A stretch of 64,000 nt of DNA from Lytechinus pictus (taxonomy: Eukaryota): the NCBI RefSeq assembly GCF_037042905.1, contig NC_087250.1, forward strand, positions 27,034,001 through 27,098,000, in the 5' to 3' direction. The position numbers and the translations under genes were made by a program. Under the pieces are notes generated by a model. That model was given only the letters and a program-made list of their open reading frames with translations, was not told the DNA's origin and did not search any database. Below, in pieces: positions 527 to 64,000 of the stretch (positions are counted from its first letter, which is position 1; the number at the start of each line of letters is the position of its first letter).

Positions 527-1043
527 ATGGATCTTACTGGAGTGCGCAGGAAACCGAACGGTGATGACCCTTCAACGAACACCGCCCTCTCTCGACATGA
601 ATTCTACGACATTTATCTCTGGGCATCGTCTAAAGATACAGACTATTTTCGTAAAATGAAAGATTGTATTCATTCCAATAGATGGAAAATGACATCTTGT
701 TTTGATCATAAGTTGGGTGAACTAGTGACGCAAAGCATCGAAAATGCTCTCTTGAAATGCTCCCACATGGTATGTTTGATCACGAAAGATGACTGTAAAA
801 CAGACAACCTTCAACAGCTTATGACAATAGAGATGGCGATTCAGTCGCTTCCAAGAACGACAGGAAAAGGATTAGAAGGCCGGGTTATTCCTATCCGTTG
901 TGACGTTCCAGAATCTTCTCTTACTCCTAAACTGAAGGCTTTGACAGGAGCGAGTATTGATGATCGCGACCTTGAAGAAAGACTAAGGAAAAGTATTAAT
1001 ACGAACATCCGGATGGAGAGAGAAGAAAAGGAGAATGTCACAG
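527..1043 (+). CDS. TIR-domain coding exon (exon 1 of a predicted TIR/coiled-coil/beta-propeller protein)
   Basis: TIR-like motifs in order: YDIYLWASSKD (bA), FDHKLGELVTQSIENALLKCSHMVCLIT (BB loop/aB/bC), EMAIQ (aC), RVIPIRCDVP..LTPKL (bD). Acceptor ttttag at 520-521 lies 5 nt before caccATGG; donor CAG|GTGATT at 1043/1044 (phase 1) lies just before the ORF stop. Confidence 0.75.
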
Positions 1044-2479
1044 GTGATTGACAGATTTATTGTCCCTACCAAAGGTATATTATTTGGCACATTGTGGTTA
1101 TATATGGGTAGTTTTACTCTAAATAGTCTACATCTATGCACTACACTCAACCATCCGTAGCAAAATACACAGCGATGTAAAAGAATTCGACCCCGCCCTC
1201 CTCAAATCATCACCAACATGATGATAATAAATAAATAGGATTTAGGATATAGGAATGATATAGTGCATACTAGAAAAAGGGAAAATGTTATAGCTCAGTG
1301 ATTTGTTCTCCTATATCATGATCATAAATTTACTTCATAAAGTGTACATGAATGGAAAAAATATACTTTTTTTTTTTTCATTTGAGACCCGTCTAAACGT
1401 TCCTAATGCACGCATGACTGAGTTAGAACAATGAAACGTCGTGCTACCAAATTTCCATTCGCACGTAAAGTTATGTTTTTTGAGTGAGTTTTGCTGGTTT
1501 TTACTGCTATCTATTCGGAAAACAAATTTTATACCTTGAGTATGAATTTTTTCCCCCTCTTTCATACAAGACCTTATGCGTTAAAAATATGAATGACGCA
1601 AGCCATAGTCAAGAAAAAATGTTGCATTGAAACATGCTTGATTTCTTACTATTCAATGGATCGTTGAAAAAACAAGCACTTTCTTTTCCCCCAACAAAAA
1701 AGGAAACAATCTTAAAAATAGGTCGGTGAAGGAAACCCCTTTATTCAGTGGCCGCGGAAGCGGGGGAGGGGAGCCCATATCACATGGGCGGCAGAATATG
1801 TTTGAACGGGGAGGGGCGCAGCAGAAAAGGGTACGCGTACATCACCTTTTTTACAATTGAAGGGGAGAAATCATTTTCGTGTTTTCCTTTAAATGAGTAA
1901 CCCCGCCCTATCCAATATTCCACCGCCCCTACCTGGTCTTGTCATATGAAGCATATTTTTACAAGTTTTACAAATAGAATTCAAACATTACTTTCAAGCC
2001 AGCAATAATATTCACTGGTAGCCCGTTTTCTGTCGCTTGTTGGAAATACTCGTTTTCCTATGATCAATAGGGAGAAATCAAGCATCGCATGTCTTCAGGA
2101 CACACACCACTAACTATTTCCCCATAGACTCATGTGTTAAAAATGAGATTTGAAAAAATCGCCAAAAAATAAGTCTTAATAAGGACATCATTTAGATTGT
2201 TCTTCCAATATCCTTCAAACGCCAAAGATAGGAAAATGTGTTTTTCAGCATGTTTTCGCGCTACAGGGGCTCAAACCAAGACTACATGCAAACTTGGTTG
2301 CAGTCACAGTGCTCACAGGGTTTCTTGGGCAACTAATTAAGGTCCCATAAAATCCAGCATTGACAAATCACTGCTCTCCCATTGGACTGAACAGATCCCG
2401 TAGTAATCCCTCTCTATATGCCCATGTGAAAAAAAAAATGTTCAGATAGGCATTGTTTATTTCATTTGAATATTTTTTC

Positions 2480-3035
2480 CCCGGGGGGGCCACTTCCATT
2501 CACGAGTGGATACCATGCGCGACCATGGGGTCTCGAAAAGCACCCTAAACACGTAATTTCCATATTCTGAAAATGCACCCCTTAACAAGTATTGGCGTGT
2601 GAAACCCTACCCTTAACAAGTATTGGAAACAAAACGATAGTCTTGGCAAATATTCCCTGAAATGAACCCCTAAACAAGTACAGGAATGTTTTATTGTTAC
2701 GGGTCCTTCGGTCGTCGGCTTTACCTTATTTGGTTTAGTACGACCCCACCTTCTACACCTCGCGCAAATCGGACTCTAAACACGAAGTGTTGGGGCAAAA
2801 TGGACATCCTTTATAAAACATTTTAATTTTGTTTTATCATTCCCGCAAATCGACCCTAAACACGTAATTTTCCTAGCGAAATAGACACCCTTTTAAAATT
2901 ATTTTTTGTGTTTTTGACACCCTTATCACGTTACGTACGTAACGTGCCCTATCGTGAAAAGGACATCCTTTTTACGTGTTTTTTTGGTCGCGCATGGTAT
3001 CCACTCGTCAATGTAAGTGCCCCCCCCCCCCCGGG
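2480..3035 (+). mobile_element. Non-autonomous DNA transposon (MITE) with 8-bp TSD
   Basis: Terminal inverted repeats CCCGGGGGGGCCACTTCCATT.ACGAGTGGATACCATGCGCGACC; ATTTTTTC duplicated at 2472-2479 and 3036-3043. Confidence 0.85.
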
Positions 3036-3468
3036 ATTTTTTCCCAACCATTACGGGTCTAAAGGGAATTCCCTAAATTGCCTGATCCCATTAGTGGTGT
3101 GTGTCCTTCATGGAACTTTTTTTTCGACAATGCGTCAATCATATTTCATGCACAAGGTCTCATAATTATGAAAGATGAAAATGAATATACAAGTTTTGAA
3201 CTTATTTTCCAAAATACATAGCAGTAAAAGCCAGAAAGAGTCTCTCAAATTCGTAAGTTGCTCATGCAAAATGAAATTTGCTAGCACCACTTTGTTCTAA
3301 CTCAGTCATGCGAGCACTATGAACGTTGAGATGAGCTTCAAATGAAAGATGCGGAGCGTATCTTTTCATGGTTTCCTTTTTTTCTAGGACGCACTGTATA
3401 TTGCACATAATTATCATCTTTGTTAGGCATGTTAGGTGTTCAAGGAACTTCTGTAGTCGGCTAATTAA

Positions 3469-4065
3469 AGGACAAGTCCACCCCAACAAAAAGTTGATTT
3501 AAATAAAAAGAGAAAATTCAAACAAGCAAAATATCGAAAATTTCATCAAAATCGAATGTAAAATAAGAAAGTAATATGACATTTTAAAGTTTCCCTTAAT
3601 TTCACCAAACAGTTATATACACATCCTCGTTGGTATGCAAATGAGGAGACTAATGATGTCATCCACTCAATATTTCTTTTGTATTTTATTGTATGAAATA
3701 TTTTAATTTTCTCCTCCTTGTCCGGTGGAACAGCAATTAATTCCTCCATGAAAATTTGGAATTAGTATTGTTTAATACTATATGGTTCAGTCAAGTTGGT
3801 CCTTATCGTCAAATCTGTAAAAAATGAAATATTGTATAATTTAAACAATAGAATATAAAATAAATAGTGACTGAGGGACACCATCGACCATCTCATTAGC
3901 ATGTCACTGATTTGTGCATATCACTGTTTTGTGAAAGTAAGCAAAAATTTAAAATGTAATAACTTTCTTATTCTACATTTGAATTTGATGATGTTTTCAG
4001 CATTATGCAGGTTTGATTGTTTCTTATTTATTTAAATCAGCTTCTTTCTGGGGTGGACTTGACCT
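3469..4065. mobile_element. Kolobok-like MITE
   Basis: TTAA on both sides (3465-3468, 4066-4069); termini AGGACAAGTCCACCCCA ... TGGGGTGGACTTGACCT. Confidence 0.8.
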
Positions 4066-4393
4066 TTAATGATGTCGATAAACATTACTGAACGTAGTGG
4101 GTGCAAACACCTCAATACAAATAACTAACAAAATGTTTTTTTAGCGTTACGCTTGTCTTAATTTTCTCTATTTATTCAAACTCACATTATTCTGGAGTGG
4201 ACTTGACCTTTAAGCTAGACTACCGATTTAGGTGCTCGCAGCTTTTTGAAAAATTACCTTCTGCTGGTACCCAATTACCTAACCTGGGTTGGGTGCAGCG
4301 CAGTATGGGTAAAATCATCATTATTATTAACAAACATAGGCTTTTACCAAACATCCATAATTGATGTATTTTAAACTATTATTTACGATATAG

Positions 4394-5972
4394 GTTGCTA
4401 TGTGTCTCAACCTGAAAGAGATGTAACAAGAGAGCGACGCTATGTCAAAATGTCTTCTGGTCGCCCGAGCACCACCAAAGACGACGAACAGAAACAACGT
4501 GAGCTAGATGGGACGAGGAAGAAGCTGAATGAGAAACGGGCCATGTTAGAGGAAACAAAGCAAAGACACAAGGTAGTTGAATCGAAAATTAGAGCCGTTT
4601 CAAATTCATCAAGTAAGCATTTTCAAACGATCCATGATGATATCCAGGAGACATTGGACAAAACATTACTAAAGTTAAAAGTTAAAGAAAGAGAAAATAT
4701 AGAATGCATTAATGAGATAAACAAGGACGCAGATAAGCAAATAACAGACATAAATAAAAAGCGACAAAAAAGGATAGAAGCTAAAAAGGTCGAGCTAGAA
4801 CGGGAACGAAAAATAATCAAAGACAATGAAGCCAAACTATCATCATGTATATCAGACAAAGATGAAATCAGCAAAAAAGTTTCCGAGAAGATAAGCGATG
4901 TTAATAATAAGATTCAGGATGCAATAAAGAATATTGAATTCACCATCACACGTATAAACCAACATGATAAAACATTGGTGAATGAAGCTCCTCAAGTACT
5001 TGCATCTATTGATGAAAATTTAAGTTTGAATGTTCATCAAGATGTTAGCGACTGCCTTGACCGAATAAAGAGTGAAGTTGAGAGAGTGAAGTTTGTAGAG
5101 AGGGAAGTAGGTGGAGAATACTATGGTAGAATTGATGGGTATATCGGTAAATGGGAACTTGTCAAATCAATCCACATTCCATCGGTTGTTAATTACCCGT
5201 ATGTGCGTGGTTTAGTCAGTGATGATGAGATATGTGTGCGAGACGAAGATAACAATGACATGTATGTTACAAACATCAACACTCAACACACAGAGAAAGT
5301 CATTGATGGAGATGTGTGTTTATTACATCATGTGCGCCCATAGACAGTAACGTAATAGTATGTGGTAAGGAGAGAGATGATTGCACGGGTGACAGGTTGG
5401 ATGGATGCATCACTCTCTATGACAGGCAATGGAAGGTGATTAGAGACATCAGCATACCAATGAATGGAGGCAGTTATTGTGTGTATGTTGATGTTGACAG
5501 GGATGGGATGATCATCGCTGGTCAGTTCAATCAGTCTAATATCTACGTCATCAATCCTGCTGATGATAAGATAGTAAACACTATTACGATACAGGGTAAG
5601 GAGGTGAGGGGTGATATACAAGCCTTGTCATCAGGTGATATCGTTGTGAAGACAGGTGGTAATGAATTCACTGTCATCTCACGATCAGGAGAAGAGAAGG
5701 CTGTCATACACTGTGATGAGTGGTACGACCCACAGTGTCGCGTTGACAAACTGACAGACACACTCTACATCGCGTACTGGGATAGAGCACGTAAGACCTA
5801 CGCAGTTGATCAGGTGTCACGTGATGGTATCATCCAGGCAAGGAGGATCGTGGAATACGAGGAATCAGGTCGCGCTAACTTCATAAGCCCTTGTCTTGTT
5901 TCTCCTTCTGGTAACTTCGTAGGGTGTGATGGAGACAAACTTCTTCTCTACAAGAAGACATTAATCTTGTAA
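4394..5972 (+). CDS. Coiled-coil + NHL-like beta-propeller exon, copy 1 (no B-box; 2-bp frameshift at ~5313-5320, possibly a pseudogene or assembly error)
   Basis: ORFs 4402-5343 and 5316-5972 together align colinearly with ORF 41896-43557. One extra TG in GATGTGTGTTTATT relative to paralog GGTGTGCGTGTT shifts the frame. Confidence 0.85.
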
Positions 5973-8447
5973 ATCATCTAGACTATCAAAGGAATCATAT
6001 CGGATTTGTAAGAGAAATATAGACCAGAGATTTGTTTTCACTTTTACTTCCATTTCAATTTACGTCCTTCTATCTCTATATGTACTACATTCATATACAC
6101 ATGGCCATGGTGTGTATAATGTTGTATCAATCCATATCAAATAGAAAACTGTCGCTAATGTCCACTCCGTCTACATTAAGGTCTGTAATGAATGCACTCA
6201 GATCCAAATGAATAGTTTACTCGAAACCTGAACAAAATAAATGCAAAATGTGTTCACGAATTGCCTACTTGAACCAGATTGTTATTGTAGAAAGTCTTTT
6301 AGATTGGCTGAATTCAGTTTTGAACGTGTTAATAACTAATTTCTGTGAAGTGAACCCGATCATTTATTTTACCAAACGACATTTCGTTCAATTTCATTCG
6401 ATGTTATTCTCCTAATAGTGATCGGGTTATTCCTCGATTAAAATTGCTCATAGCTTTTAAGGTATTTGATTCGAATCAATTAATCAGGACCCTATTTCAT
6501 AAAAGTGTTGGCTATGAGAACAACTCTTGCTAAAATGTCAATTACCATGACAACAATAACGATTCTGCTTCCTGATTGGCTCATCCAATGAAATTTGATA
6601 TTCAAACTGGAGTTGTTATCATAGCCAGGTTTTATGAAATGGTACCCTGGTTGATTTCATTTTTTTTTATTCTGTGGTAAAAAAAAAAAAAAGCGGGAAG
6701 GGGTCAAAATGGTATGAAATTAATTGAAGTTTCGTAATGTACACAATCCCCCCCTCATGACGTTAGATTAAAATAAGATAAAATCTCGTAAATAATGGTG
6801 TTTAATAGGGTTCTTGTTTAGTCTACATTCATATGACAATATAAAGGGAAAGGGATAATGTTTCCCGTATAATTCTTTTTTTCGCCAATTAAATATTCTC
6901 TAGTCATGTATAACAAAATAGGTGAGATTTTTCTCAAAAATATTTAGCACACGGTATATTCATCATATTCCTGAAAGTATTGCATCATATTACTTATTTC
7001 AATCAGTTCATTTCTCTTCGCTTGTACAACTTTTACTTTATCCTCATATCGCTTAATATTTTCAACATAGATTACTGATTAATTGTTTCCCTACACGAAT
7101 AATATCATCTTACACATTGGCTACCTGACTAGGAAATCTTAAGTAACAATGATATGGAAGTGAAATATTTTTTTAAATAGTTATTTGTGTCGACGTTCTG
7201 TAATGATGTGTTCGCACTTACTACGTTCAGTTATGTTTATCAACATCATGAAATTATGTCAAATTAATTTCATTATAAAGATCATATGTCAAAAAAAAAA
7301 AACACATGATAGGCTAGCGTACCATGCTGTAAATAAATAAAACAGGAATCTATTTTTGTTTAACAGACAGAATAAGATAATTTGTCAAATATCTGCCCAT
7401 AATGTAGCTTTTGTTCGTGGTTTCATGTTAATATAATATTTAACTCGATTCAATCCATTTGTTTATTTCGTTTCTATTTTAAATTGTGTTTAGTGTGTAA
7501 ACTGGAAGTCTATTCCAGAGGCATTAGCTAAAGTGAATATTCTTAAGATGAAAATGGTTGTATTCTTCTGATCATAATTGATTCAAATTGTGTGGTTATT
7601 CTTATACATCTACCCCCCCCCCCATCTCTCTTTTAACCCCTAAATTACCCCCTTGTACTGTGTAATACGACACGAATATCCATGTTGCTGCAATAAGTTG
7701 TATATAAATCGTTATTGTCTAGGGTGTGTTGTTTTAAGGTAGGAGTATATCATTTTTCAAAAGAAAAAAATCCAACCGAATTTATTCTTACAATAATCAA
7801 CTTTGTACAGGTTAAGTTTAGCTAGGGTTTATGCTTTATTTCAACTATCAATTCAATTGCCCGTTATTGTCTATATAGTATAGGTTATTGAAAGTTCGTT
7901 CCTAAAAATGGAACGGGATATAGTGCTATATGTCTACATTTTCTTCCGGTGATATGTCAGATCTAACGATTTTTCTTGTTTTTGATTGGCTGAGAAGCGC
8001 TGTTACTATGGGTAATGTCAAATGAAACGCTTGACAATCCAAACTTTTTATTTATTTGCTCAACATTTGTTGTTTGATCTTATACAGCTAATTACAATTT
8101 TCTTCATACAACTAGGAAAACTAATGTACATAATGAACATTTATATTATGATATAACATGTATAATGTGATGATGTTAGTATCTATTATTTCAAGTGTAT
8201 ATTGCAAGATGAGTAGAAACTATACTTTTTGTTTTTAAAATAATATATTTTCATTATAATTTGTTGTGAATTACTAACACTATTGAATAGAAAAAAAAAC
8301 CGTTTGTTGATGTATATTACTTAAATCGAGACGAAATTATTCTTACCTACTTGAGAGCTGAAAATAGTCAAGTGAAAATAGTTCGGAAATATCTTTCTGT
8401 ATTAATGTATTTAGTAAATTTCGAGAAATGTTTGCCAATGCAATATA

Positions 8448-9267
8448 CAGTGCGTCCCACAAAAAACGAAACCGAAATTTATCGATGATTTATCATAACT
8501 TAATCACAAATAAAATAGACAAATGACCTATCATTGTAAAGCTTAGAATCTTCTCTTTTATCTGCAATTACTTACATTATTTTTTATTCATGCATGAGTG
8601 AGTAAAAACAATTTGAAGAGGGGATACTAAAAAGTCATTTGGCGGGCTGTATCTGGATCTCAAAAAAGAAAACCGCATTTTGAAAAAGTTCAATATCTGC
8701 TCTTTAATTTGATACCTCAATTACAGAAAATGGTCAAGAAATAACAAAGTTCTGGTTATTTGAAATAAGGTTTGAATTTCAATAATTTCATAAAATGAAG
8801 AGGTTTTACAGGCTAGCGTTCAAAATCACTCGACACTCCGTTTTGTTGACTATCAGCCATGCATTAATTCTTTTGTTAACTATGCGATAGCTTCTGTGGG
8901 AAACCGGTGAAAACACGTTTATTTAATGAAATTATGGAAATACAAGCATTGGTTCGAGGGAACATAACTTTTTTACTTCTTGACCATTTTTTGTGATTAA
9001 GGTATCAAATAAAAGAGCAGATATTGAACTTTTTAGGCATGTGATTCTCGTTTTAAAATTCAGATACCCCCCGCCAAATGAGTTTTTGGTATCCTTTCTT
9101 CATATTGTTTTTGCTCACTCATGTGTAAATAAAACATAATCTCAGTAATATCAGATGAAAGAGGAGATCCTAGATTTACATTGATAGGTCATTTGTCTAT
9201 TGTATTTATGATTAAGTTATGATAAATCATCGCTAAATGTCGGTTTCGTTTTTTGTGGGACGCACTG
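8448..9267. mobile_element. Tc1/mariner-type MITE with long TIRs
   Basis: TA|CAGTGCGTCCCACAAAAAACGAAACCGA ... TCGGTTTCGTTTTTTGTGGGACGCACTG|TA; inverted similarity extends several hundred bp. Confidence 0.9.
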
Positions 9268-10261
9268 TATAGTGATATACAAATTGCTGATCTAATTATC
9301 AACCGATCGGAAGAATATCTAAGATTTTAAATTGATCAAAAATACATGGTGTATTTTGAAGTTATTATCATAGTTATGAAGAGGGTGTTCTTAATACACA
9401 AATAATCACGTACTATATAATCAAGAAATTTTGTCAGCATAAATGAAAATAAATGTCAAACAAAATACCGACTTTGCTCAATATATGATGTTTAATATAT
9501 ACAGCTGATTATAATTCGCTTCATAAAACTTGGAAAACTATTGTACATAACATGCATAATGAACATTATTATGATATAATGTATATCATGATATCTATTA
9601 TTTTCAAGTGTATATTGAAGGATGAGTAGAAAGTATACGTTTGCTTTTGATATAATATATTTTCATTATACTTTGTTGTGAATTACTAACATTGTTGAAT
9701 AGGAAAAAAAGCCAATGCTTGTTGTATAGACTTAAATCAAGACGAAATTAATCTTAAATACTTGAGAGCTGAAAATAGTCATGTGAAAATAGTTAGGAAA
9801 TATCTTTCTTTACTGTGGGTTAATGTATTTAGTACATTTCGAGAAAGGTTTGCCAATGCAATATATACATGACATAGTTGTATACAAATTACTGATCAAA
9901 ACACCAATTATCAACCGATCTAACTATATCTTCACTATGGGTTATCTACTACATTTCGAGAAAAGCTTACCAATCCCCAATCAGTTGTATGCACATTATT
10001 TATCTAAAAACCAAGTATCAACCGATCTGAATAAATGCTTAATATTTTTAAACTGATCGAAATCTTTGCAGTTTTTTTTAGGTCATTATCATGGTGATGG
10101 GGAGGGTGATTTTAATGCACAAACAATCATGTAAAGTTATAATCAAATAATTTTGTCAGCATAAACGAAATTAAATGTAAAAAAACCGACTCTATATGCA
10201 GTTCATATTTGTGATTTACAAATGATTTTATTGGGCATGTAGGACTGATGGTAACAGACGA

Positions 10262-10670
10262 AGGGGGGGGGGGGGGGGATGAGAAGATAAAGGGAAAAGA
10301 GAGGGGTGGGAAAGTGGAGGGGAGTGAGAGATTAAAAAAATGGAGAGACGAGGGAAGTAAAGATGGAAAAAATATAGAGAAAAATATATATATGAAAATA
10401 AAAGGATAAAGAGACGGAAAGGAAAGGGAAAGAAAAGATGAGAGGGAGGGGAAGGGGGGGGGGGGAGAGAAAGATAGAAGAAGGGGAGAGAAAAGAATGG
10501 AGAGACAGTGAGAATAAAGACTGAGAAAGAGCGAGAGAGAGAGAAGTGGAGGAGTGAGAAGGAGAAATGGAGAGACAAGGTGAATACAGATGGAATGAGA
10601 AAGAGAGAAGGAGAAGAAGAACTACCGAGAGGCAAGGAATGATAGAGAGAGATGGGGGGAAGGGGACGGG
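10262..10670. repeat. Purine-rich (GA) low-complexity tract
   Basis: Almost exclusively G/A; duplicated at ~47468-47885. Confidence 0.9.
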
Positions 10671-11023
10671 GTGAATTTGTATTTGAGTTTGTATTTGTAT
10701 TTTCCTTTCTTATATAGGAAACAAAGAAACATTACATTACACAGTGAAATACATCACAAACCATGTCAATCATAAAAATTCATAACAAAATTGAAGAAAG
10801 GATGAATTTGAATTCCGTATAGATAGATCTGGCTTCGTTGAAATTAAGTAAAAGGAAACATAACTGAGGGGCTTGCCAAGAACGAATGAATTTAAGAGAT
10901 TTAAAAAAATCATAGAAAAGAGTTAGAGAGAGAGAAAGAGGGGGGGGGGGGGGACAATCAGAACGCTACTTTTTTGCTTCACTGGGAAATTTTGTACGAT
11001 TAAATAATATTAAATTATATTAA

Positions 11024-11641
11024 AGGGATGGTCCAGGCTGAAAATGTTCATAATAACTAAATAGAGTAAAATCCACAAAGCCAAATGCTGAAAATTTCAT
11101 TAAAATCGGATAACAAATATGGAAGTTATTGAATTTTAATTTGTCTAATTTTAAATATTTTGTGAAAACAGTTATTTGCATATGGTCATGATTATTCATT
11201 AGGTGGGCTGATGACGTCACATCCCCACTTTTCTTGTTCTTATGTTATTACATGAAATCATACACGTTTCATTTCTTCATACATGTGCAAATGATGTGTC
11301 TCTATTACGATAAAATAGGTTGCAGCAATAAATAACTAATGCACTTGATCAGTTGCCATCCAATTGTTTTAGCTCTTGGTAAAAAAAGTTTAATAAATCG
11401 AATTTCATATAATACAATACAACAGAACTGGCGGGGATATGACTTCATCAGCCTACCTCATGAATATTCATAAAGACATGCCTAGAACAGTAGAACTGTT
11501 TCACCGGAATGATAATGCAAATCTTAAAAATTCAAATAACTTCGTTATTTTTTCCCGATTTTGATCAAATTGTTAGCATATTGCTTTTTGAATTTTATTC
11601 TTTTTATTGAGATTTAAATATATCCAGCCTGGACCATCCCT
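11024..11641. mobile_element. Kolobok-like MITE
   Basis: TTAA|AGGGATGGTCCAGGCTG ... CAGCCTGGACCATCCCT|TTAA. Confidence 0.85.
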
Positions 11642-12894
11642 TTAAATGTGACCATTGTGCTACTTCTAAAAATTCAAAGAACTACGCCACTGTCATATTG
11701 AAATTATGTTCAACGCTTCACCAAAACAATATATCAAAATATAATAACACAACACAAGAAATACATTTAATTATAAAATTATAAAGAATAAAGAAGATTA
11801 TGGCAATGTCAATTAATGAAAGTGAAATGTGAAGGAACCTGCATAAAAAGCAGAGCTTTATAATGTCTGCTGGTTCCCTAATATGGTTTAGATGCTTTAA
11901 TATGGTAATTGTTTAACTAGGGGCTGGGGGGGGGGGGTCAAGTATATCTAACACAAAATAATGTATGCACTGACAGAGCAACGCACGTTGCTTATTGAAT
12001 CACCCATTGAAAGTGAATTTCTTCTTCTTTAGAAACAACCCAGTAATGGCTTCCATAAAGTGACAGTGATCTGAAGTCGGGTATCATCGATCGGGAATCC
12101 ACCTTCATGTCTATCCATTTTACGTCAAAAGATGGCGCTCTTTCATGTCTACATTACACACACATTGAAACACTTGATGAAGATGTGATTTCTGGCATTA
12201 ATAAAATCAGTTGAAATCAGAAGTCCTAGCAGTCTACAATGAAGCTGAAATGAAACGATTGATTTCCGTAATGTCAATACGCTAAAGACGCACTCCCTCA
12301 CTCCTCACTTTTTTCCTTGCACAGAGCAAATATGCAACTAAATAGCTCATGAAATAAATTCGATGAGATTGAGGAATACCCCCCCCCCCCATTGCCCAAT
12401 TGGCAAGCATACACTGTTACTTTACAAACATGCATGTCAGGTCAAAATTTTTATGCAAAAGGAAGATCAAATGAAATATTTTCAAACTGAGAATGTCGTC
12501 TTCCATTAAAATCGTTGGAGGAATCATGTCGGGTTTTTTTTTGGTGAGGCACCGATCCCTTAGATATGCCAAATAAGCTGGAGGTTTCGTGTTGAGATAG
12601 AAAGGCCAACGCAAAAAGCAGGGTAAAAACATGGTGTTGTGATCATGTATCAAGATGCTCAAAGCTACCCGTCACAGGCTGAAAATAATATAGAGTGATA
12701 CTCACTTACCAAAATGCTGAAAATTTTCATTAAAATATGATTACAAAATACTGCTGTTAGTGTATTTTAATGGGCTGGTGATATCACGTCCAGTGCCATA
12801 GAAAGGACTTTTCAAATAGCAGGTGCTGGGGGATTCGTTAAAAAAAATTGTTAACTAGATGATGCCCGAAGGGATTTCAGTAACTAAAAAGAGA

Positions 12895-12974
12895 AGCAAA
12901 AAAAAATAATAATAATAAAAAAAAAAATAAAAAATAAAAAAAATAATAAATAAATAAATAAATAAATAAACAAA

Positions 12975-13005
<31 letters not shown>

Positions 13006-13058
13006 AAAAAAAAAAAATAAAAAAAAATAAAAAAAAAAAAATAAATAAATAAATAAAA
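12895..13058. repeat. (AAAT)n / poly-A microsatellite
   Basis: Directly visible; shorter version at ~50120-50190. Confidence 0.9.
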
Positions 13059-14457
13059 GTTACTGCTGCCAAATGTTTCTCTATTTCAATCATTTGTTTT
13101 TCTTGTCAATTTGATGGCAATGGAGTGCTTCCTATGTGAAAGCATACACAACACCCTCTGAAAAATCATGAGGGGTGCTTGTGCATTCACCCCAGTACCC
13201 CCGCTTCATATTTTATTAAGTTATTAGATTAAATCATATTCCTCTACTATCTAAAGACATGTTTGCATGATAAATATATTACACATTTAATCAGTAGTCA
13301 ATTCATGTTTTCCGTTCTTGGTGGACGAAATTTGACTAAATATAATTTTCCATAAAATAAAATAAAAAAAGAATAAGTGCGGATTAGCCTGCAGGCACAG
13401 ACCCAGATTGGAACTTTGATCAACAAGTGTGCCTCCACGCAAAGACCAGCACATACAAAATTTGCTGTTCCAAGAGAGCCTTCAGTACACAAGGCATAAG
13501 TAGGCTGCACATTCAGACCCTTTGCCTAACTCGAGTGAAGGGTTTGCCCAGCAGACTAATTGCGGATAGACATCGTCAACTTGTTCATTGCATATTCATG
13601 AAGACATGCAGAGAACTTTCTCATCAGAATAATGCACGTGCTTAAAATATCACAAGTCTTTCATTCCTTATCCGGTTTTAATGACATTGTCAGTATTTTA
13701 TTTGTCTAATTTTACCTTTTCTGTTCAAATCATATTATATCCAAGCCTGGGGTACCCCTTTAAGCTTCCTTTCTAAATCACGTCAGCCCACATGAAACAA
13801 TAATATTACGTTGTTCATTGAAGCCAATGGATTCCTTTAATTTACACAGATTTTAAAATATGGGGAGTTAATGGACGAAGTCTGATGTTTGATATTTAAA
13901 TCTTAATAAATTAAGCTTGGTTATTAAAAATCATACAGCAGAAATCATATAGTAAACAGTATTGTAAAAAATGGAGCAGCATTTGAACTGAGTGAAATCA
14001 GTTTCATGATTCGACGATTAGTACCACTGACTCTCATTTTTTTACGAGATACCTAATATATGTGATTGGAGAGGAATTTCATTTTGTTTCCCATTGCCCT
14101 TTTTTGAAGGGCAATAGGATATTATACATGTATATCGATTGCATAACAGAGAAATACCAGATACTCTAGTAGAAAATGTAAAAAACAAAAGAAAAAAAGA
14201 AGGAAAACAAAATTGATAATATCAATCGACAATATTGCCCCCTTTTCTGGCCAAACGACCATGTAATATTTTGAACTATCGCCCTAATGAACATTTGATA
14301 TTTGCATACTATACCAACATGATGAGAATCACCATGTAAAAATATACTCATTATAATTCATCGTTAAAAATAATGTTGTTAATCATATTGTGTTATGTTT
14401 TAATGTTTCCTGTTATAACACCTTTGTGTTCCTATATTCAGTATTGTGTATATACAT

Positions 14458-14510
14458 CGGAAGTGATCGACGGAAATATGCAAATAAACGTTCAAGTTGA
14501 AAGTGAAAGT
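14458..14510 (+). promoter_or_regulatory. Putative promoter: ETS + octamer + IRF-E/ISRE motif cluster
   Basis: CGGAAGT 14458, CGGAAAT 14471, ATGCAAAT 14478 and GAAAGTGAAAGT 14499 within 53 bp; all retained at 52272-52324. Confidence 0.55.
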
Positions 14511-14625
14511 TGTTCATTCTAGGGACTGATACGGGATGTAAACCTGCACGTTCAGAACTTGTAGATTTTGTTTGCATTCATCCACACAGTGAACAGAGAT
14601 AGAGGGTGTGAACTTGAAATTATCG
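14511..14625 (+). other. Putative non-coding first exon (start approximate)
   Basis: Ends in consensus donor CG|GTAAGT just downstream of the motif cluster; the downstream coding exon starts at an acceptor, so an upstream exon is required. Confidence 0.5.
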
Positions 14626-16289
14626 GTAAGTTTTGATAATTAGGAATACCCTAATCCGTATTTTGTTTTCATTATTCCGTATTGATAAACTGGGAACATG
14701 TAAGCTAATACTGCATAATCCTAAATCAGTTCATATGAATTTATAGGCCTACTATATTAACACTAAGGATACGAGAAATTTCCTAGTCAATAGAAAATCG
14801 AATCTAAACATAATCTTGTTGTAGGCTACTACATTTACACTAGAAATGCTAGAGGTGAGAAACTTAATAATATAAGTATGATAAGGGGAGAAGGACGATT
14901 TTATTAGGACTCGAACATTTGTCAGTAGAGATAATGAGGGTGACTCTTGCAGGTGGTAAACGAATGAGGTGCAAGACATAATTTTCGTTCTCGCTGATGT
15001 ATGACATTCTATGATAATATAGCACCCCGCACCCGGATTAAAACCTATGGTTATGCACGTGATCAGGAAATTACAAAGAAACATGTTTGGAAGTTTTAGC
15101 TTCTTCAAATTTGTCGTTGTTATTCTTTGGAACCATAGAAGAATAAAGTTCACTATCAATCCGTATTCACTAAAACAAGTAAACGTTGTTTCTGTCTTTT
15201 TAATCTCAGACACTACACTCAAAGCAAAATATACACAATAAGAAGAGATGTATTGTCTACCAACATGTTAATTGTAAAATGATGTTACAAACATATTTTG
15301 CCCATGCAACCATCTAACTGTGACACCTCAGGCTCTTTTTCCTCTCTCTCTCTCTCCCTCCCCCTCTCTCTCTCTTTCTTGTATAACTTTTCAATATCAT
15401 GTAAAAGAGAGAGCTCTGGGGCTAGGCCTACCCCAAAAGTTCAAGCACCAAGATAAAATTTTGAAAAAGTAAGAAAGGAAAAGAAGAGGTGTTAATTATC
15501 ATTATCTATACACATATTTGTCTCAATCTAAACAAAATAAGCTAAACGTGTATTCTTTTTTGTTTGTTTTCTTCACTCCGTTAAATGACCTTTTTATCTT
15601 TTGGAAATTGTATTCAATACACAATGTTTGGCACCCTCATTTTTTTGTTGGTTCATCACGGCATTGACACAAGGCTTTTAAATTTGACAAAAGCTACCGA
15701 AACTGTGATCAAATTTACCATTTTTGTTCTAATATCATTCAGACTAAAAATATTCCTTCTGGATAAAAATGAAGGGAAATTATGAATCTAATCTGCATTT
15801 GTAATAATTCTTTTCTGTATTATCATAATAGTACAAAACAATTGAATTATATTGGATGGCTCAGAACGGAATATCAGAGATATTTCAATAGTTTTGTTTA
15901 GTAGCTTTTATGGTATGCGGAGGATATCAGTCCTTCAATATGCTGTCATATTGAACAGACAACTGATTCAGACAAGAATACGCATTAAAAATGCATCGCT
16001 GAAACCATGGACCGTAGTAGGGTCCATGCTAAAACACTCTGTAGATTACAATCCTTGATATCAGTATTAATAGTATAAAACCATTATTGTCAAAGTCATG
16101 GTCAGTTATTAAATGTTATTATCATGTACAACATTATTATCATTCTTATTATAGTTATGGTGACTTTGATTTTTCGTTATCATAATCAAAATTATTATCA
16201 TAAATGGTGACAATTATAATAATAATAATAAAGTAGGTGGCCCTAATGGTACTATTATTATGGTAATATTCACCATCAACGTTATCTAA

Positions 16290-23200: not shown

Positions 23201-24123
23201 TGACCCTGGATCTGATTATCAAACCTTTTGTCTCGAAATCATATAATTTATTCAATTTATCTTCCAGATCAGCTATATTTGCTAAAAGTCTATTATTCTT
23301 GGAGACATTTTCACTTAGTTGAGACTTCATTATCTCAATTTCTTTATTGAGATGATCCTTTTCTTTTTTCCTTTTTTTCTTTTTCCTGGCAAAGTATTCC
23401 ATACTGCAACCAGTAATTACACATTTAAGGGCATCCCACTGAGTGTTTGGATTACATTCAGGATCCTTATGTATTTTTTTAAATTCAGAGATCTTCTCCT
23501 TAATTAAATTTATATATTCTGCATCATGATGTAAATAATAACAATTAAGCTTCCAATATCCTTTACCTCTTTTGGGACTATTATCGTTGAAATGTATAGA
23601 TACTATGGAATGGTCAGATTGGATTCCCGGGGATATTTTCGACTTAACGCAGTTACCTATAAAATCACTAGAAACCAAAATGTAATCCAATCTGGAGAGA
23701 ACTTGGGGTGACTTTTGATGTCGTGTATATTGTCGCTGTGTTGGGTGAAAATGTCTCCAAACATCAATTAAGTTGTATTCTTCCATGAGATCTGAAATCA
23801 TATTGCTAGCCCTAACATTAGAGTGATGGTGTCTTGTACCCTGGTAATCTATATCACTAAGGGTGGCATTGAAGTCTCCGCCCAAGATTAAGGAAGAACT
23901 TTCAAACTTGTCCATTTCTGCAAATGTCTCTAGAAAAAAATTAGGGTCATCGTTGTTGGGAGCATAAATGTTAACAATAGTCAAATGTATGTCATTCAAA
24001 AAACAATTCAGAATTAAAAATCTACCTTGAGGGTCATATAAGGATGACTTCATTCTCACTGAGATAGAATTTCGTATTAGTATTGCAACACCCCGACTAT
24101 TGGAAGAGAAGTTAGTAAGTTAG
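20239..24123 (-). mobile_element. 5'-truncated, disrupted L1/Tx1-clade LINE (ORF2: APE endonuclease, RT, C-terminal Cys domain)
   Basis: ORF pieces 23193-24059 (VNIYAPN, GGDFN, SRLDY, SDH), 22549-23142 (KAPGFDG, YRPITLL), 21611-22348 (QGSPISP, FADD) and 20551-21669 (CVFC..ETIVHLFCEC). AATAAA and A-tail near 20239-20264; possible TSD TTC(C/A)TGTAAGAT. Confidence 0.92.
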
Positions 24124-52263: not shown

Positions 52264-52271
52264 ATATACAT

Positions 52272-56606: not shown

Positions 56607-59600
56607 GGAGGGCGCAATTCATCTTCGCTGGATAAGGTCACGACCGTTCCCGGAGAGTGATTAAACCCTCTATTTCTAACGTTTTTGGATATATATTTTG
56701 AGAAAGGACTAGTGGAATCTGAGGTAAATATAGTGACATAACATATATATCTATTTGGAAACTGGATGTTGTTGCATGGTCTTGATATTTTGAGATTCCA
56801 ACTTTGAGGTTAACGCCCAGGCTATTTTTGAAAGATGGCGGCCTACGCAGAAAAAGCCCGGTTTAAACCTCCAATAGACTCAACTGACATTAAACCGGTG
56901 TTTGTGAAACACAAGGACATCCCCTCTAGTAATGACAAAGATGTATCAAGTGAATAACTTTTCATGTGCATTGCTCGTACAACAAAAAGTAGCGGCATTA
57001 GAGGGATTAAAAAAATCGGAGGTTTATGGCGTTCATATCTGACGTCCCAAGACGCCCGTATAGAGCTCATCACAAAAGGCATGAATGTTAGGAATGTCAA
57101 TATCGCAGTATACGATAAAAATCCATTTCTAAATGATGGAATGGATGGATGTATTCGCCTCATAATTAAGGACATACCCCTGTCAGCCCATGACTCCTTG
57201 ATTTGTGACGAACTAGAGATGAGGAAATATAAAAATGTTGGGAAACCCACCTACCAACGGCTCCGTGTCGACGGGCAGTTGACATACTGTCTAACCGGAG
57301 ATAGGACTGTTTACATCCAGCAACCATCCCAACCCCTCCCTCGTTTCATGACCTTCGGCCTCTTCAAAGGGAGAATCTTCCACCCAGGGCAAATCACAAT
57401 CAACACAAGCAAGGTGGTAGTATGCTCCAACTGCTTGAACGAAGGGCACCATCGTTCAAGTTGCATTAACCCGGTTGTGTGCTGCATTTGTAAACAACCC
57501 GGGCACATTCAGCGTGATTGCAGCTATACGACCACGCCCACCTCGCAACAACAGGCTGATAACACCCGCACAGCAGATATCACCCCCGATGCCCAGGCGA
57601 CAATTGAACAGTTCATCGCGTCCAAGCGAAATGCAGCTACACCCGTCACCGAACAGACGCATCACCCTGACGACCCCATACCTATGGAACCGAAGATTAC
57701 GCGATCTAAAAGCAGCCGCCAATCGCAACAAAAGAATGCGTCGTCATCCAGGCAACCAGGCATATCTGAATACCTACGTAGCGAGAAAGCAAGTTCGCGA
57801 GAGTCGGCAGTCACAGAGGAAGAAACAAACACAGATGCAACAGCTTCAGGAGATGAAGAAGAATCCGACTCGTATCTATCTCCCGAAACACCGAGCCCTA
57901 AAAAACAAGGGGAAAACCCCGTCAAGCGTAGGAGAAAACAGAAAAAATGAAGAAAAAAAAATTGAACAGTAATTATTCTTGAAAGGTGCAGAGATGGTCC
58001 ATATCTGTTCTAACTTGAAAACGCAGAATCTACACCTCATTTCTCTTAATGTCAGAGGCATTCGGAATAAAGTAAAACGAGGCGTTATATTTTCATGGTT
58101 ATCTTTTCAAAAAGCGAATGTAATTTTATTACAAGAAACCTTCTTAACAACTGAACTGGAATATGCGTTTAGATCATAAAAATGTGGTGAGCTGAGCTTT
58201 TTCAACCATGGAACAAATCATTCTAAAGGCGTTGTGACTATAATAAAAAAAACAGGATAACATTGAAATACTCGAAACTTTTGTGAAATTCGACGGAAGG
58301 GCAATCGCTGTGAGATTAAGTGTTAAGAAAAAAGTATACTTTCTTCTAAATGTTTATGCCCCTACTAAAAAATCTGAAAAAGAAATATTTTTCAAGATAA
58401 TGTATAACTGGATAAAAGATATAAAACAAAAGGGTGATTTACTCGTATTTGGAGGTGATTGGAACTGTGTACAAGATCCCAAGCTTGATTCCCAAGGTTG
58501 TTCACAGGCTTATAAACAAATGAAAGGGTTACAAAATATTCAGAATAAATTTAGTCTAAGTGACGTATGGCGAAAATGGTATCCACTCGGAAAACAATTT
58601 ACCTGGCGTCAATTAACGTTAGTTATATCATCTCGACTTGATTACTGGTTGATTTCTTCATCATTGTATTGTAATGTCCAAAGTACTGATATCAGACATG
58701 CAATCAAGTGTGATCACTGTGCCATATCACTAAAATTAAGGATAGAAAGTGTTACGAGAGGAACGGGGACATGGAAATTTAATAATTCATTATTACATGA
58801 TTCTGTCTATAAGAAACATATTAAGTATATTATAAACTCTACATCATTTCAATGCTATATGAATGCAAGAACCAAATGGGACATTATGTAAAAAATAAGG
58901 ATTCGAGAGTCTACCATGAAATTCGCCAAGCAAAAGCAAATTGAAAAGATGGAATGGTATAAAAGAACGTACGAAAAGTACATGTTATTGTGCAGGAATG
59001 TTGACAGTGGTAATTACGAAAGAAACGACATAGCAAGAATGAACGATCTGAAAACAGATATTGAAAAATGGTATGCACATAGATGTAGGGGCGCATTTGT
59101 AAGATCTCGCGAACGGTGGATGGAATCTGGCGAAAGATCTAACAAGTATTTTCTCAATTTAGAAAAGAAAAATGGAAAACAAAAAGAAATTGACTGTATA
59201 AATAAAAATGGAAAAATCGTTACTGGTAATAGAAACGTTCTTAAAGAAATAACAAAATATTACAAAGACTTATACTAAAAAAAGTCTTTAAGTGTACATT
59301 CCGAAATAAAAAAAAGTACCTAAAAAATACAAATTTAACTACTCTTTCTGAGGATGATGTACTGGCTTGTGTAGGCTTAATAACAGAAAAGGAATGTTTT
59401 GAAGCGTTAAAAAATAATGAGAAATAACAAATCTCCCGGCAGTGATGGGCTAACTGCTGAATTCTATCGGTGCTTCTGGGATGATTTAAAGTATATGTTG
59501 ATCGATAGTTTAAACGAAGGCTTTGAAAGTCAAGAGTTGTCTGAAAGCCAGAACAGGTTGTCATTACATTGTTGCATAAAAAAGGTGACAAGAGAGTAAT

Positions 59601-59705
59601 AGACAACTGGAGACCAATTTCATTGTTGAACATTGACTACAAGATCCTTGCAAAAGCACTTTGTAAAATATTGTATACTGTGTTAGAAAACATAGTCTCC
59701 GCAGA
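56607..59705 (+). mobile_element. Tx1/L1-clade LINE with intact 5' end, disrupted ORF2 and missing 3' half
   Basis: ORF2 pieces: SLNVRG, LQET, NVYAP, GGDWN, SRLDY, KSPGSDG, WRPISLLNIDYKILAK; several stops and frameshifts; ends abruptly in RT. Confidence 0.9.
56835..57950 (+). pseudogene. LINE ORF1 with two CCHC zinc knuckles and one premature stop
   Basis: ATG 56835 is in frame with ORF 56964 through a single TAA; CSNCLNEGHHRSSC and CCICKQPGHIQRDC. Confidence 0.85.
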
Positions 59706-59709
59706 TCGC

Positions 59710-61763: not shown

Positions 61764-62456
61764 TTAAAACACTTTTTTTGCTCGGCGGGGATGGACGAGG
61801 CGCATTTTTTTCTCTCTAAAAGGGCGCCAAAATCAGGTCAGGTTTTGGCCCCTCCTACGAAATCCCGGATCTTATTATCATTATTCTATACAGGAGGAAT
61901 TTCGTATAACATTTTTTACAATGAAAAGAACCTTTAGACTTTTTTCTCTTCGAACATTTAAATTTCGCTGTAAAGTATGCTCACTGCGGATAAAAAATTT
62001 GGGCCCTAAACATACAAGACATCTTTTTGACGTTGTTTGTCGTTTTCTCTACGCACTATCATAATTTATTTCCAAAATTCTTTGCAATTTGAGCACTGAT
62101 CCACGTTTATCATGAGCTAAAAATAAAAACCATACATCCTAATATGTTTATACACTGCACCTCTTTGTGTATCCGTGTTTAATAATACATTATACAAGGA
62201 TCTCAATTCAACTAAAGAGAGAAAAAAGTATTATTACAATTAAGCGTTGTTTTATCGGTTCACAAAACAACGCAAGAAAAATTAAGATTAAATGTGAGAA
62301 CACTTTCACTGTAAAGGTTTCTGAGAAAGCGAGAGAATGTTTAATATACCCTCGTAATTTTTTGTTCAAATGTTTTTTTAAATTCATTTTAACTTTTCTT
62401 GCGGTTTTTTGTTGTTTTTGTTTTAGGTAGGCTACTGTCCCTATTTTCTCTTCATC

Positions 62457-64000
62457 ATGGCGTCTAAGTTCCCAACAAAGAAGGGTGGAGAGGTCGAGCT
62501 TCGTACAAGGAAAGGTCATGACATGACCTGGTCATGTGACAAGCATGGTGAGCCAATCAAATTTTACTGTAAGAAACACAAAATTCCTATTTGTCATCCA
62601 TGCGCTACCAAAGATCACAGTCAGAAACCATGTGAGCTAGACGACATCGAGGATGTCATCTTCGAAAGGAGAAGACAGCTAGATGAAAAACGGCCAAAAG
62701 TTCAAGGACTTCACAAACAATTGGAAGCCCTCAGCACGAAAATAAAGACTGTGTCAACGTCTGGAAGTACTCATCTTCGGACAATTGACAACAACATTCA
62801 AGATTCATATCACGACAAGATCGATTCTGTTGGAGAAAAGGAGAACAGGATGATTAGGGTTATTAACGAGGAGGCAGATGAGGAAATAAGACTAGTAAAT
62901 GAGAAGAGAGAAAAACGGATCAAGGATTGCAACACCGAGAGAGAAAATGAGCGACAAATCATCAAACACAAAGAAGCAAAACTTCTAGCAGATGCAAAGA
63001 AAATCAGCGAAGTTGTTGCTAAGAAGATCAAGGATCTGACTGATAAGAATCAGCATGTAATAAACACTGTAGAGAACATTGAATCAACCATCACACGTAT
63101 TAACCAACATGATGAAACATTGGTGAATGAAGCTCCTCAAGTACTTGCATCTATTGATGAAAATTTAAGTTTGAATGTTCATCAAGATGTTAGCGACTGT
63201 CTTGACCGAATACAGAATGAAGTTGAGAGAATGAAGTTTGTAGAGAGGGAAGTAGGTGGAGAATACTATGGTAGAATTGGTGGGTATATCGGTAAATGGG
63301 AACTTGTCAAGTCAATTCACATTCCATCGGTTGTTAATAACCCGTGTGCGCGTGGTTTAGTCAGTGATGATGAGATATGTGTGCAAGTACGTAACAGTGA
63401 CATGTATATTACAAACATCAACACTCAACACACAGAGAAAGTCATTGATGAAGGTGTGCGTGTTACATCATGTGCGCCCATAGACAGTAACGTAATAGTA
63501 TGTGGTAAGGGGACAGGTGATCGCACGGGTGACAGGTTGAATGGATGCATCACTCTCTATGACAGACAATGGAAGGTGATTAGAGACATCAGCATACCAA
63601 GGAATGGATACGCCGTATATTATAGTGTGTATGTTGATGTTGACAGGGATGGGATGATCATCGCTGGTCAGTTCAATCAGTCTAATATCTACGTCATCAA
63701 TCCTGCTGATGATAAGATAGTAAACACTATTACGATGCAGGGTAAGAAGGTGTGGGATGGGATACAAGCCTTGTCATCAGGTGATATCGTTGTGAAGACA
63801 GATTATAATAAATACACTGTCATCTCACGATCAGGAGAACGGAAGGCTGTCATACACTGTGATGAGTGGGTCTGGTCAGAGTGTCTCGTTGACAAACTGA
63901 CAGACACACTCTACATCGCGTACTGGGATAGAGCGCGTAATACATACGCAGTTGATCAGGTGTCACGTGATGGTATCATCCAGGCAAGAAGGATCGTGGA
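62457..64000 (+). CDS. RING-less TRIM-like B-box/coiled-coil/beta-propeller protein, copy 3 (runs off window end; missing from the ORF track)
   Basis: Manual translation MASKFPTKKGGEVELRTRKGHDMTWSCDKHGEPIKFYC ... DGIIQARRIV with no stop; colinear with 41896; acceptor at 62425-62426. Confidence 0.9.
   Translation, partial: MASKFPTKKGGEVELRTRKGHDMTWSCDKHGEPIKFYCKKHKIPICHPCATKDHSQKPCELDDIEDVIFERRRQLDEKRPKVQGLHKQLEALSTKIKTVSTSGSTHLRTIDNNIQDSYHDKIDSVGEKENRMIRVINEEADEEIRLVNEKREKRIKDCNTERENERQIIKHKEAKLLADAKKISEVVAKKIKDLTDKNQHVINTVENIESTITRINQHDETLVNEAPQVLASIDENLSLNVHQDVSDCLDRIQNEVERMKFVEREVGGEYYGRIGGYIGKWELVKSIHIPSVVNNPCARGLVSDDEICVQVRNSDMYITNINTQHTEKVIDEGVRVTSCAPIDSNVIVCGKGTGDRTGDRLNGCITLYDRQWKVIRDISIPRNGYAVYYSVYVDVDRDGMIIAGQFNQSNIYVINPADDKIVNTITMQGKKVWDGIQALSSGDIVVKTDYNKYTVISRSGERKAVIHCDEWVWSECLVDKLTDTLYIAYWDRARNTYAVDQVSRDGIIQARRIV

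Follow-up and report, generated by a model that had tools for sequence, protein, structure and literature searches.

The window analysed here, a stretch of 64,000 nucleotides of the sea urchin Lytechinus pictus (contig NC_087250.1, hereafter C6; C6:27034001-27098000), carries three tandem copies of a gene family whose products combine a coiled coil with a C-terminal beta-propeller of the NHL type. The framework of this propeller is almost invariant among paralogs and is interrupted by 11 hypervariable patches; one propeller face is under positive selection on this homogenised framework. At the opposite end of the protein a B-box is exchanged for, or combined with, TIR and Death domains. Our best overall explanation, in which we place slightly more than even confidence, is that the window is part of a ~1-Mb tandem array on C6 belonging to an echinoid-restricted multigene family. 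With the same modest preference we regard this urchin-only propeller family as candidate soluble cytosolic sensors of non-self or altered self.

The variable patches were compared in an alignment of 21 paralogs, the three window copies and 18 others from C6. A first-pass annotation, made from the letters of the window, had noted hypervariable patches and had proposed a variable sensor domain. The patches were recovered, five of the 11 showing 20 distinct motifs among the 21 copies, and the proposal holds as far as diversification is concerned. The 11 patches occupy every second loop of the model (s1-s2, s3-s4, up to s21-s22), two per blade, and they alternate with 11 conserved loops. Since alternate loops of a beta-meander propeller lie on opposite faces, all 11 patches lie on one face. 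From the NHL repeat register we take them to be the D-A and B-C loops of the "top" face.

Loops were assigned to face A (the variable face) or face B by topology alone, not by variability, and pooled Nei-Gojobori estimates were obtained for each class. The ratio of nonsynonymous to synonymous substitution rates (dN/dS) is 2.60 in face A loops (81 codons; dN 0.247, dS 0.095), and none of 2000 column bootstraps gave dN-dS <=0. It is 0.65 in face B loops (49 codons), 0.91 in the strands (157 codons), 0.41 in the coiled coil (214 codons) and 0.33 in the B-box (43 codons). The face A value is 2.54 on gap-free columns. Considered loop by loop, pN ranges from 0.12 to 0.31 in all 11 face A loops and from 0.00 to 0.075 in all 11 face B loops. 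Six independent sister pairs gave a pN/pS of 2.28 for face A (Nd 161, Sd 19, binomial P 1.8e-4), while the strands (1.11) and face B (1.14) show no difference from neutrality. Fisher's test of face A against the rest in these pairs gave an odds ratio of 2.09 (p 0.018).

The AlphaFold2 (AF2) model of the propeller (copy 2, residues 275-563, 52-row alignment) is all-beta, with 23-24 strands arranged as a six-bladed NHL-type propeller (predicted local distance difference test, pLDDT, 94.2; predicted template modelling score, pTM, 0.90). Six TRIM-NHL domains lead the ranking of 48,161 chains in an exhaustive VIA search: Mei-P26 (Z 24.9), Brat (24.1), TRIM2 (23.1), Lin41 (22.5), NHL-2 (22.4) and TRIM71 (22.1). 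The NHL-like propeller of the first-pass annotation is thereby upheld. The Foldseek list for the same model is dominated by seven-bladed G-beta WD40 chains (TM ~0.6), the best TM score going to the TRIM2 NHL domain; the VIA ranking was relied on because of this dominance. No Pfam NHL or filamin signature was obtained in scans of the window copies or among the families listed for 52 representatives (E<=1e-3), and no RING finger in scans of copies 2 and 3 or among the same listed families. With TRIM-NHL domains as top structural matches and none of these three signatures, the architecture is RING-less and TRIM-NHL-like. The propeller is acidic (isoelectric point, pI, 4.49; 51 D+E against 31 K+R), with a net charge, from composition only, of about -3.5 per copy in the variable-face loops. 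Judged from this composition, it lacks the basic RNA-binding top surface of TRIM-NHL proteins, which argues against Brat-like RNA binding.

The coiled coil passes straight into the propeller. Two copies of residues 18-268 (B-box and coiled coil) were used for dimer prediction, with three controls. The predicted dimer reaches an ipSAE of 0.62, compared with 0.00 for the best control, with a partner pLDDT of 86 and runs that agree in >=95% of contacts; in a benchmark this mark was reached by 21 of 30 proteins solved as one-chain pairs and by none of 23 solved single chains. Contacts 144-144, 154-136, 166-125 and 173-114 (i+j ~289) describe an antiparallel register with a dyad near residue 144. 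B-box and coiled coil are predicted on this model to form an antiparallel TRIM-type homodimer. The arrangement being that of TRIM proteins, the pass may stem from the model's memory of solved TRIM coiled coils. No hydrophobic segment was found (maximum Kyte-Doolittle value over 19 residues 0.84), and scans of window copies, paralogs and representatives returned no NACHT/NB-ARC or LRR family. Membership in the NLR or TLR families was rejected, since NACHT, LRR and a membrane segment are all absent; of the "NLR/TLR-analogous" array proposed in the first-pass annotation, the analogy stands and kinship does not.

Stop-to-stop open reading frames (ORFs) and tblastn with copy 2 agree on exactly three coiled-coil/propeller exons in the window (Table 1), the tandem triplet first proposed; a fourth copy or fragment was sought by tblastn and none was found. 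Two copies carry the B-box expected of them. PF00643 scores above its gathering threshold in copy 2 (E 1.1e-5, 26.0 bits, cut-off 24.1) and in copy 3 (E 1.4e-5), both single-exon genes, and is present in 26 of the 52 representatives; its Cys/His ligands are invariant in the paralog alignment. Copy 3 runs off the window and is complete in the genome (C6:27096427-27098115, 85% identity, an open frame of 563 aa without stops). The closest paralog of copy 2 is a locus at C6:27235364-27237043 (L001), 91% identical overall and identical in the coiled-coil segment, with an in-frame TAG at codon 22 as listed. Copy 1 is linked to the TIR exon that had been claimed for it: it starts at an AG acceptor (tatag|GTTGC, 4392/4393), 3.35 kb behind a TIR-like exon, with canonical donor and acceptor and matching phase.

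The identification of this 5' exon as a TIR fold is weak by sequence and, on the model, clear enough by structure. Its AF2 model, built on a 9-row paralog alignment (pLDDT 67.2), consists of five beta-alpha units. The leading Foldseek matches are all TIR domains (BtTir E 1.1e-6; MyD88 TMt 0.69) and, in the exhaustive VIA search, the top 23 of the 48,161 chains are TIR or SEFIR, led by TRAM and TIRAP (Z 12.4), Hydra TRR-2 (12.0) and MyD88 (11.6). Feature matches in the ESM-Atlas likewise fall in TIR clusters (0.88-0.92). The alphaC-helix glutamate (IEMA), a possible counterpart of the catalytic NADase residue, is not invariant among the nine aligned paralogs.

Copy 1 itself is interrupted. Aligned with copies 2 and 3 it has 2 bp extra, inserted near 5320 inside the propeller, a frameshift missed in the first pass. 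The exon is consequently represented by two overlapping frames (4375-5343 and 5307-5972), and tblastn splits it at 5316. The sequence 7 kb upstream of its TIR exon, just beyond the window edge, holds Death fragments that have decayed and contain stops. Because of the frameshift and the decayed Death exon, copy 1 most probably represents a recent pseudogene, with a Death-TIR-coiled-coil-propeller gene 173 kb away as its intact counterpart; an assembly error or a polymorphism is a less likely possibility. An older L. pictus model, P0083, shares its TIR and coiled-coil sequence with copy 1 and continues into an intact propeller in which almost all variable loops are different. It may represent either a very divergent allele or a difference between assemblies.

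Elsewhere in the genome (811 Mb, 368 contigs) the range of exchangeable ends is wider than the interchangeable TIR or B-box N-termini claimed from the window: B-box, TIR, Death+TIR, Death and Death+B-box were all found, together with a C-terminal ZU5-Death addition. The TIR exon has eight matches; two of them (97% and 84% identical) are followed, at distances of 2.9 and 3.8 kb, by intact coiled-coil/propeller exons of 535 and 532 aa. P0089 (795 aa) joins Death, TIR, coiled coil and propeller, its three coding exons mapping at 100%; the Death-then-TIR order is thus present in P0089, and window copy 1 has only a decayed Death exon. P0087 (699 aa) has TIR, coiled coil and propeller, and P0100 (622 aa) Death, coiled coil and propeller. 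P0233 (1081 aa; L012/L028, C6:27144076-27145617) has Death, coiled coil and propeller followed by ZU5 past a splice donor, and its C-terminal stretch appears Death-like by eye, no tool match standing behind it. The stop in L012 was considered as a pseudogene mark and rejected, as it sits just past the splice donor of the longer P0233 model. The same ZU5 extension follows B-box, coiled coil and propeller in P0016 of L. variegatus. At a further locus, for which no gene model was seen, a Death exon lies 1.2 kb before a B-box-bearing exon that opens with the same acceptor-proximal peptide. The Death exon of P0089 aligns to positions 4-82 of the 86 in the Pfam Death profile (E 5.3e-4, 20.5 bits, cut-off 22.6). 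Of 160 genomic candidates for this exon type 150 were scored, and 107 matches were obtained. Many of them cluster on another contig (C8) at 46-49% identity and presumably belong to a further large family of Death-domain genes. The older model P0021 evidently fuses two genes that lie next to each other.

The history of the propeller is not that of the N-terminal region. Synonymous divergence is ~0.09 in the propeller as against 0.43 in the coiled coil. In the coiled-coil tree the four Death/TIR-linked copies form one clade (100% Shimodaira-Hasegawa-like approximate likelihood ratio test, SH-aLRT), and the copy 1 coiled-coil segment is 98% identical to that of the Death+TIR gene. From residue 240 on, this clade dissolves and each of its members is nearest to a different B-box copy (93-94% identity). 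With the propeller data the approximately unbiased (AU) test rejects the Death/TIR clade (delta lnL 33.6, p 0.007); a sister relationship between copy 1 and its Death+TIR relative is not rejected (p 0.48). At the nucleotide level, copies 1 and 2 become similar abruptly at 4925, midway through the coiled coil, and the similarity extends ~10 kb into the 3' flank at 88-96%. The mosaic sharing of patches described in the first pass is real and modest: any two copies have at most two of the 11 patch motifs in common, and copy 2 shares three patches with three different paralogs. Taken together, the low propeller dS, the conflict between clades, the abrupt start of similarity and the scattered sharing of patches suggest shuffling of a cassette; from sequence comparison, segmental duplication in tandem would fit, together with recombination or gene conversion acting on a unit made of "coiled-coil tail + propeller + flank". 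Over the N-terminal two thirds of the coiled coil, Death/TIR-linked copies retain ~60% protein identity to B-box copies. As these coiled coils form a separate clade at this level of identity, a partnership of B-box copies with the TIR copy is not favoured.

The family is neither small nor widely distributed. A search of the genome for members of the family gave at least 77 matches in L. pictus, a lower bound since these are the scored subset of 316 candidates; 68 of the 77 are free of stops. The closest named proteins to copy 2 are "uncharacterized protein LOC..." entries of L. pictus, then proteins of L. variegatus and Strongylocentrotus purpuratus, and all species-named proteins among 120 listed relatives come from these three species. 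Only 105 clusters among 1.84 billion representatives match the propeller (E<=1e-3). Ten distant representatives were looked up; all six that bear a species name are echinoid, the other four being without name. S. purpuratus has 140 genes annotated TRIM, according to a coelomocyte study (PMC13043383). In the open-access literature no description was found of an echinoderm family that combines B-box, coiled coil and NHL propeller with fusions to TIR or Death, nor any account of its one-face variability or of a TIR/Death-NHL fusion, in keeping with the earlier remark that no named family with this architecture was recognised.

Expression was examined in three raw L. pictus RNA runs, of each of which ~6% was read. 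In a 349-nt contig from one of them (X1), position 1041 is joined directly to 4392, precisely at the GT..AG sites. At the variant positions this contig has the letters of P0089 (S>F at 918, D>K at 959/961), so that it documents a spliced TIR-to-coiled-coil transcript of this paralog and not of copy 1; two reads from another run (X22) carry the window's own letters at 918-961. The frameshift is neither confirmed nor refuted by reads, no X1 contig bridging 5308-5315 and the raw depth there being at most ~1. No RNA run containing window positions 1-6500 is listed in the sequencing-run index. The copy 1 intron contains interspersed repeats (2388-3038 and 3256-4123) with high read depth on both strands in the three runs; many of these reads fit partly and continue into unlike sequence, as expected for a dispersed transposable element. 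For S. purpuratus coelomocytes, the count table of PMC13043383 gives 7-486 raw counts to the homolog LOC115927415 (62% identity to copy 2), and the same source reports that TRIM-like genes rise in coelomocytes treated with ultraviolet B (UVB).

Of the IRF/NF-kB-type motifs reported upstream of the genes, the excess stands and the regulatory significance does not. NF-kB-type GGGRNWYYCC has 12 matches (2.9 expected from shuffles) and GAAANNGAAAS, of the interferon-stimulated response element (ISRE) type, has eight (2.7 expected). They are scattered over the copy 1 intron, repeats and retroelements, and duplicated flanks, and none is conserved between the upstream regions of copies 2 and 3; three of the NF-kB matches repeat a single word, and two of these three occupy corresponding places in the duplicated flank. 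They were rejected as evidence of regulation for this scatter and lack of conservation. The ~690 bp common to the upstream regions of copies 2 and 3 terminate with a polypyrimidine tract and an AG acceptor that precedes the ATG by 30 nt, and therefore look like the tail of an intron in the 5' untranslated region rather than a promoter.

Recombination or gene conversion keeps the framework near identical among paralogs, and exon shuffling has placed Death, TIR, Death+TIR in the MyD88 order, or ZU5-Death in place of, or beside, the B-box of some members. As candidate sensors, these proteins might work as follows. Ligands of the variable face would be diverse non-self or altered-self molecules; given the acidity of the propeller, protein is more likely than RNA. 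Clustering of dimers by ligand could then nucleate B-box, Death-domain or TIR assemblies that would signal to NF-kB-type or cell-death pathways, B-box forms acting like TRIM5alpha and Death/TIR forms like adaptor-fused receptors. A bolder version is possible and is put forward only tentatively, as something we think less probable than not. The family might constitute a third large class of germline-encoded intracellular immune receptors of urchins besides NLRs and TLRs, made of coiled-coil dimers with 11 loops, similar to complementarity-determining regions (CDRs), on one NHL face reshuffled among about a hundred paralogs. These would be wired by exon shuffling to Myddosome-type (Death+TIR), Death or ZU5-Death outputs and would be an animal counterpart of fungal propeller NLRs without the NTPase switch.

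A number of observations weigh against the sensor reading. The TIR exon scores below the Pfam gathering threshold (TIR_2, E 3.7e-4, 21.4 bits, threshold 28), as does Death below its own. Alone, the exon retrieves no TIR chain among PDB sequences. The nine-exon profile retrieves TLR5 as the sole TIR chain, at E 0.93 and with an alignment covering the box-1 and box-2 regions, the other match being a designed Rossmann fold protein; the model that supports the fold reaches a pLDDT of 67 only. One of the three TIR-linked copies is frameshifted and two have decayed Death exons, which suggests that TIR/Death chimeras may be short-lived. TIR- or Death-linked forms were seen in L. pictus only (5 and 6 matches in two word-based searches of limited reach). 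The B-box forms are RING-less and hence without a known output of their own. With strand dN/dS near 1, part of the propeller variation may reflect relaxed constraint, and gene conversion can distort pairwise dN/dS. Finally, the window exons have a depth of 0 to ~1 in the three RNA runs, and four of the five S. purpuratus homologs in the coelomocyte count table have 0-22 counts.

Some of these observations would be expected if the family consisted of ordinary post-transcriptional regulators, with an RNA-binding propeller like that of Brat or LIN-41 whose loops vary through relaxed constraint and gene conversion after massive duplication. The best structural matches are indeed RNA-binding TRIM-NHL domains, the variable loops occupy the face that TRIM-NHL proteins are said to use for RNA, and strand ratios of ~0.9-1.1 are near neutral. 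Against this stand a face A dN/dS significantly above 1 opposite a face B with pN of 0.00-0.075, and open frames in 68 of 77 matches; the acidity of the propeller and of its variable face, and the absence of Pfam NHL, filamin and RING signatures from the scans, also argue against such regulators, which we consider unlikely. The frameshift of copy 1, the Death decay at two of three TIR-linked loci, the chimeric P0021, the restriction of the TIR-linked form to L. pictus and the low depth of the window exons could alternatively mean that TIR/Death-linked forms are non-functional by-products of shuffling or partly artefacts of gene models, only the B-box family being functional and no TIR-propeller receptor existing. 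Against this, two TIR-linked paralogs keep intact frames behind intact TIR exons, the contig with the exact TIR-to-coiled-coil junction bears P0089 letters, the four Death/TIR-linked copies share an old and distinct coiled-coil clade, and ZU5-bearing forms occur in both L. pictus and L. variegatus; we find this explanation improbable as well.

The fast evolution of the face could also be driven by conflict or recognition unrelated to pathogens, such as restraint of transposons or endogenous elements, allorecognition or self-incompatibility, or germline conflict, with Death and TIR as a cell-death output. Positive selection on one face and cassette shuffling fit any arms race, and fungal propeller NLRs of the same evolutionary pattern reportedly act in allorecognition. 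The array is rich in LINE and other retroelements, and most homologs are low in coelomocytes. Nothing, however, ties the family to germline or transposons; modules of the Death, TIR and ZU5-Death kinds typify adaptors of innate immunity and apoptosis, and one homolog is clearly expressed in coelomocytes. We give this origin of the variability little credence, and sensing of non-self or altered self is retained as the preferred reading.

Among known systems, TRIM-NHL proteins (Brat, Mei-P26, TRIM2/3, TRIM71/LIN-41, NHL-2) are closest in structure: B-box, coiled coil and C-terminal six-bladed NHL-type propeller follow in the same order, and an antiparallel coiled-coil dimer is predicted for the urchin family. 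Unlike them, the urchin family is without RING, filamin or Pfam NHL signature and has an acidic, not a basic, propeller. The known proteins are moreover conserved single-copy regulators, whereas the urchin family counts dozens to hundreds of copies with one hypervariable face. TRIM5alpha and the finTRIM/bloodthirsty TRIMs are said to offer a tandem multigene organisation, positive selection on surface loops of a C-terminal recognition domain, and a B-box and coiled-coil scaffold for a dimer or lattice, all features with counterparts in the urchin family. In the latter, however, the recognition domain is an NHL propeller rather than B30.2, no RING E3 is present, and some members carry Death, TIR or ZU5-Death. 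The Death-then-TIR order of P0089, and the match of its TIR type to TRAM, TIRAP and MyD88 (Z 11.6-12.4 for the model), recall MyD88-type adaptors, and the ZU5 of P0233 and P0016 recalls the ZU5-UPA-Death modules of PIDD, UNC5 and ankyrin. In contrast to these bridging adaptors, the urchin modules share one protein with a dimerising coiled coil and a variable propeller, a receptor-like arrangement. Fungal NLRs such as Podospora HET-D/HET-E (WD40/ANK/TPR, said to show "high internal conservation") share the propeller sensor, the homogenised framework, diversifying selection on one face and swappable N-terminal effectors. They differ in their NACHT/NB-ARC switch, absent from the urchin family, and in WD40 rather than six-bladed NHL blades; oligomerisation of the urchin proteins, an animal lineage, is proposed to proceed via the coiled coil. 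On this comparison the urchin family falls outside NLRs, TLRs and canonical TRIM-NHL proteins, and would be nearest to TRIM5alpha/finTRIM sensors in its working and to fungal propeller NLRs in its evolutionary mode.

The same general principle has been described in marine invertebrates. In echinoderms, molluscs and cnidarians, lineage-specific expansions join constant Death-like/TRADD-N adaptor modules to variable domains, beta-propellers and B-boxes among them (Kaur, Iyer, Burroughs and Aravind, eLife 2021; PMC8195603). The accessible part of that source does not describe the B-box/coiled-coil/NHL family, its one-face hypervariability or TIR fusions.

The remainder of the window (G+C 29-43%) consists of duplicated flanks and mobile elements (Table 1). 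The long interspersed nuclear element (LINE) between copies 1 and 2 matches Exo_endo_phos (E 1.1e-11), RVT_1 (E 9e-24) and zf-RVT; as its domains sit in three overlapping frames, it is probably frameshifted. Two inverted repeats (16289-17479 and 25306-26450; 0.4-0.7 kb, 85-95% identical, internally tandem) flank the LINE region and could represent an element of the foldback type or the termini of a larger insertion. A tandem repeat array at 32314-33051 gives many short-offset self-matches (84-89% identical). CT-rich low-complexity tracts at 10127-10731 and 47453-47917, in the duplicated 3' flank of copies 1 and 2, produce long spurious minus-strand ORFs. An insertion of ~5 kb (~56600-61764), which includes a second retroelement, breaks the otherwise colinear duplication unit of copies 2 and 3.

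Table 1. Features of the 64,000-nucleotide window (positions counted from its first letter).
Feature	Position	Strand	Details
TIR-like exon of copy 1	522..1043	+	ATG at 527; acceptor ag|ACACC, donor ACAG|gtgatt
Intron between TIR exon and coiled-coil/propeller exon	1044..4392	+	GT..AG ends; holds transcribed repeats
Copy 1, coiled coil and NHL-type propeller, without B-box	4393..5972	+	frame shifted by 2-bp insertion near 5316-5325
Segmental duplication, copy 1/copy 2	4925..16289 vs 42509-54291	+	self-blastn, 88-96% identity
LINE-type retrotransposon between copies 1 and 2	20551..24119	-	endonuclease, reverse transcriptase, zf-RVT
Conserved sequence upstream of copy 2	41207..41865	+	>95% identical to 61764-62426 upstream of copy 3
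Copy 2, intact, 553 aa	41896..43557	+	exon 41866-43557, ATG 41896; equals recorded protein P0001
Copy 2 domains	B-box ~41968-42060; coiled coil ~42091-42687; propeller 42688-43554	+	ORF, Pfam, model
Retroelement with zinc-knuckle gag-like ORF and endonuclease ORF	56958..58891	+	within the ~5-kb insertion (~56600-61764)
Copy 3, B-box/coiled coil/propeller, runs off window end	62457..64000	+	exon 62427-64000+, ATG 62457

Sea urchins serve as the textbook example of very large repertoires of innate receptors, built from TLR, NLR and SRCR genes. If the sensor reading is true, an urchin-specific family with a different sensor fold and clear positive selection on one of its faces would add to the routes by which animals are known to generate diversity in recognition, all the more so as it is fused directly to Death, TIR and ZU5-Death modules. 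It would also mean that TRIM-NHL scaffolds, known as conserved RNA regulators, can become variable sensors. L. pictus is a genetically tractable urchin, and P0089 (Death, TIR, coiled coil and propeller) and the B-box genes of the window provide concrete genes in which this could be tested.

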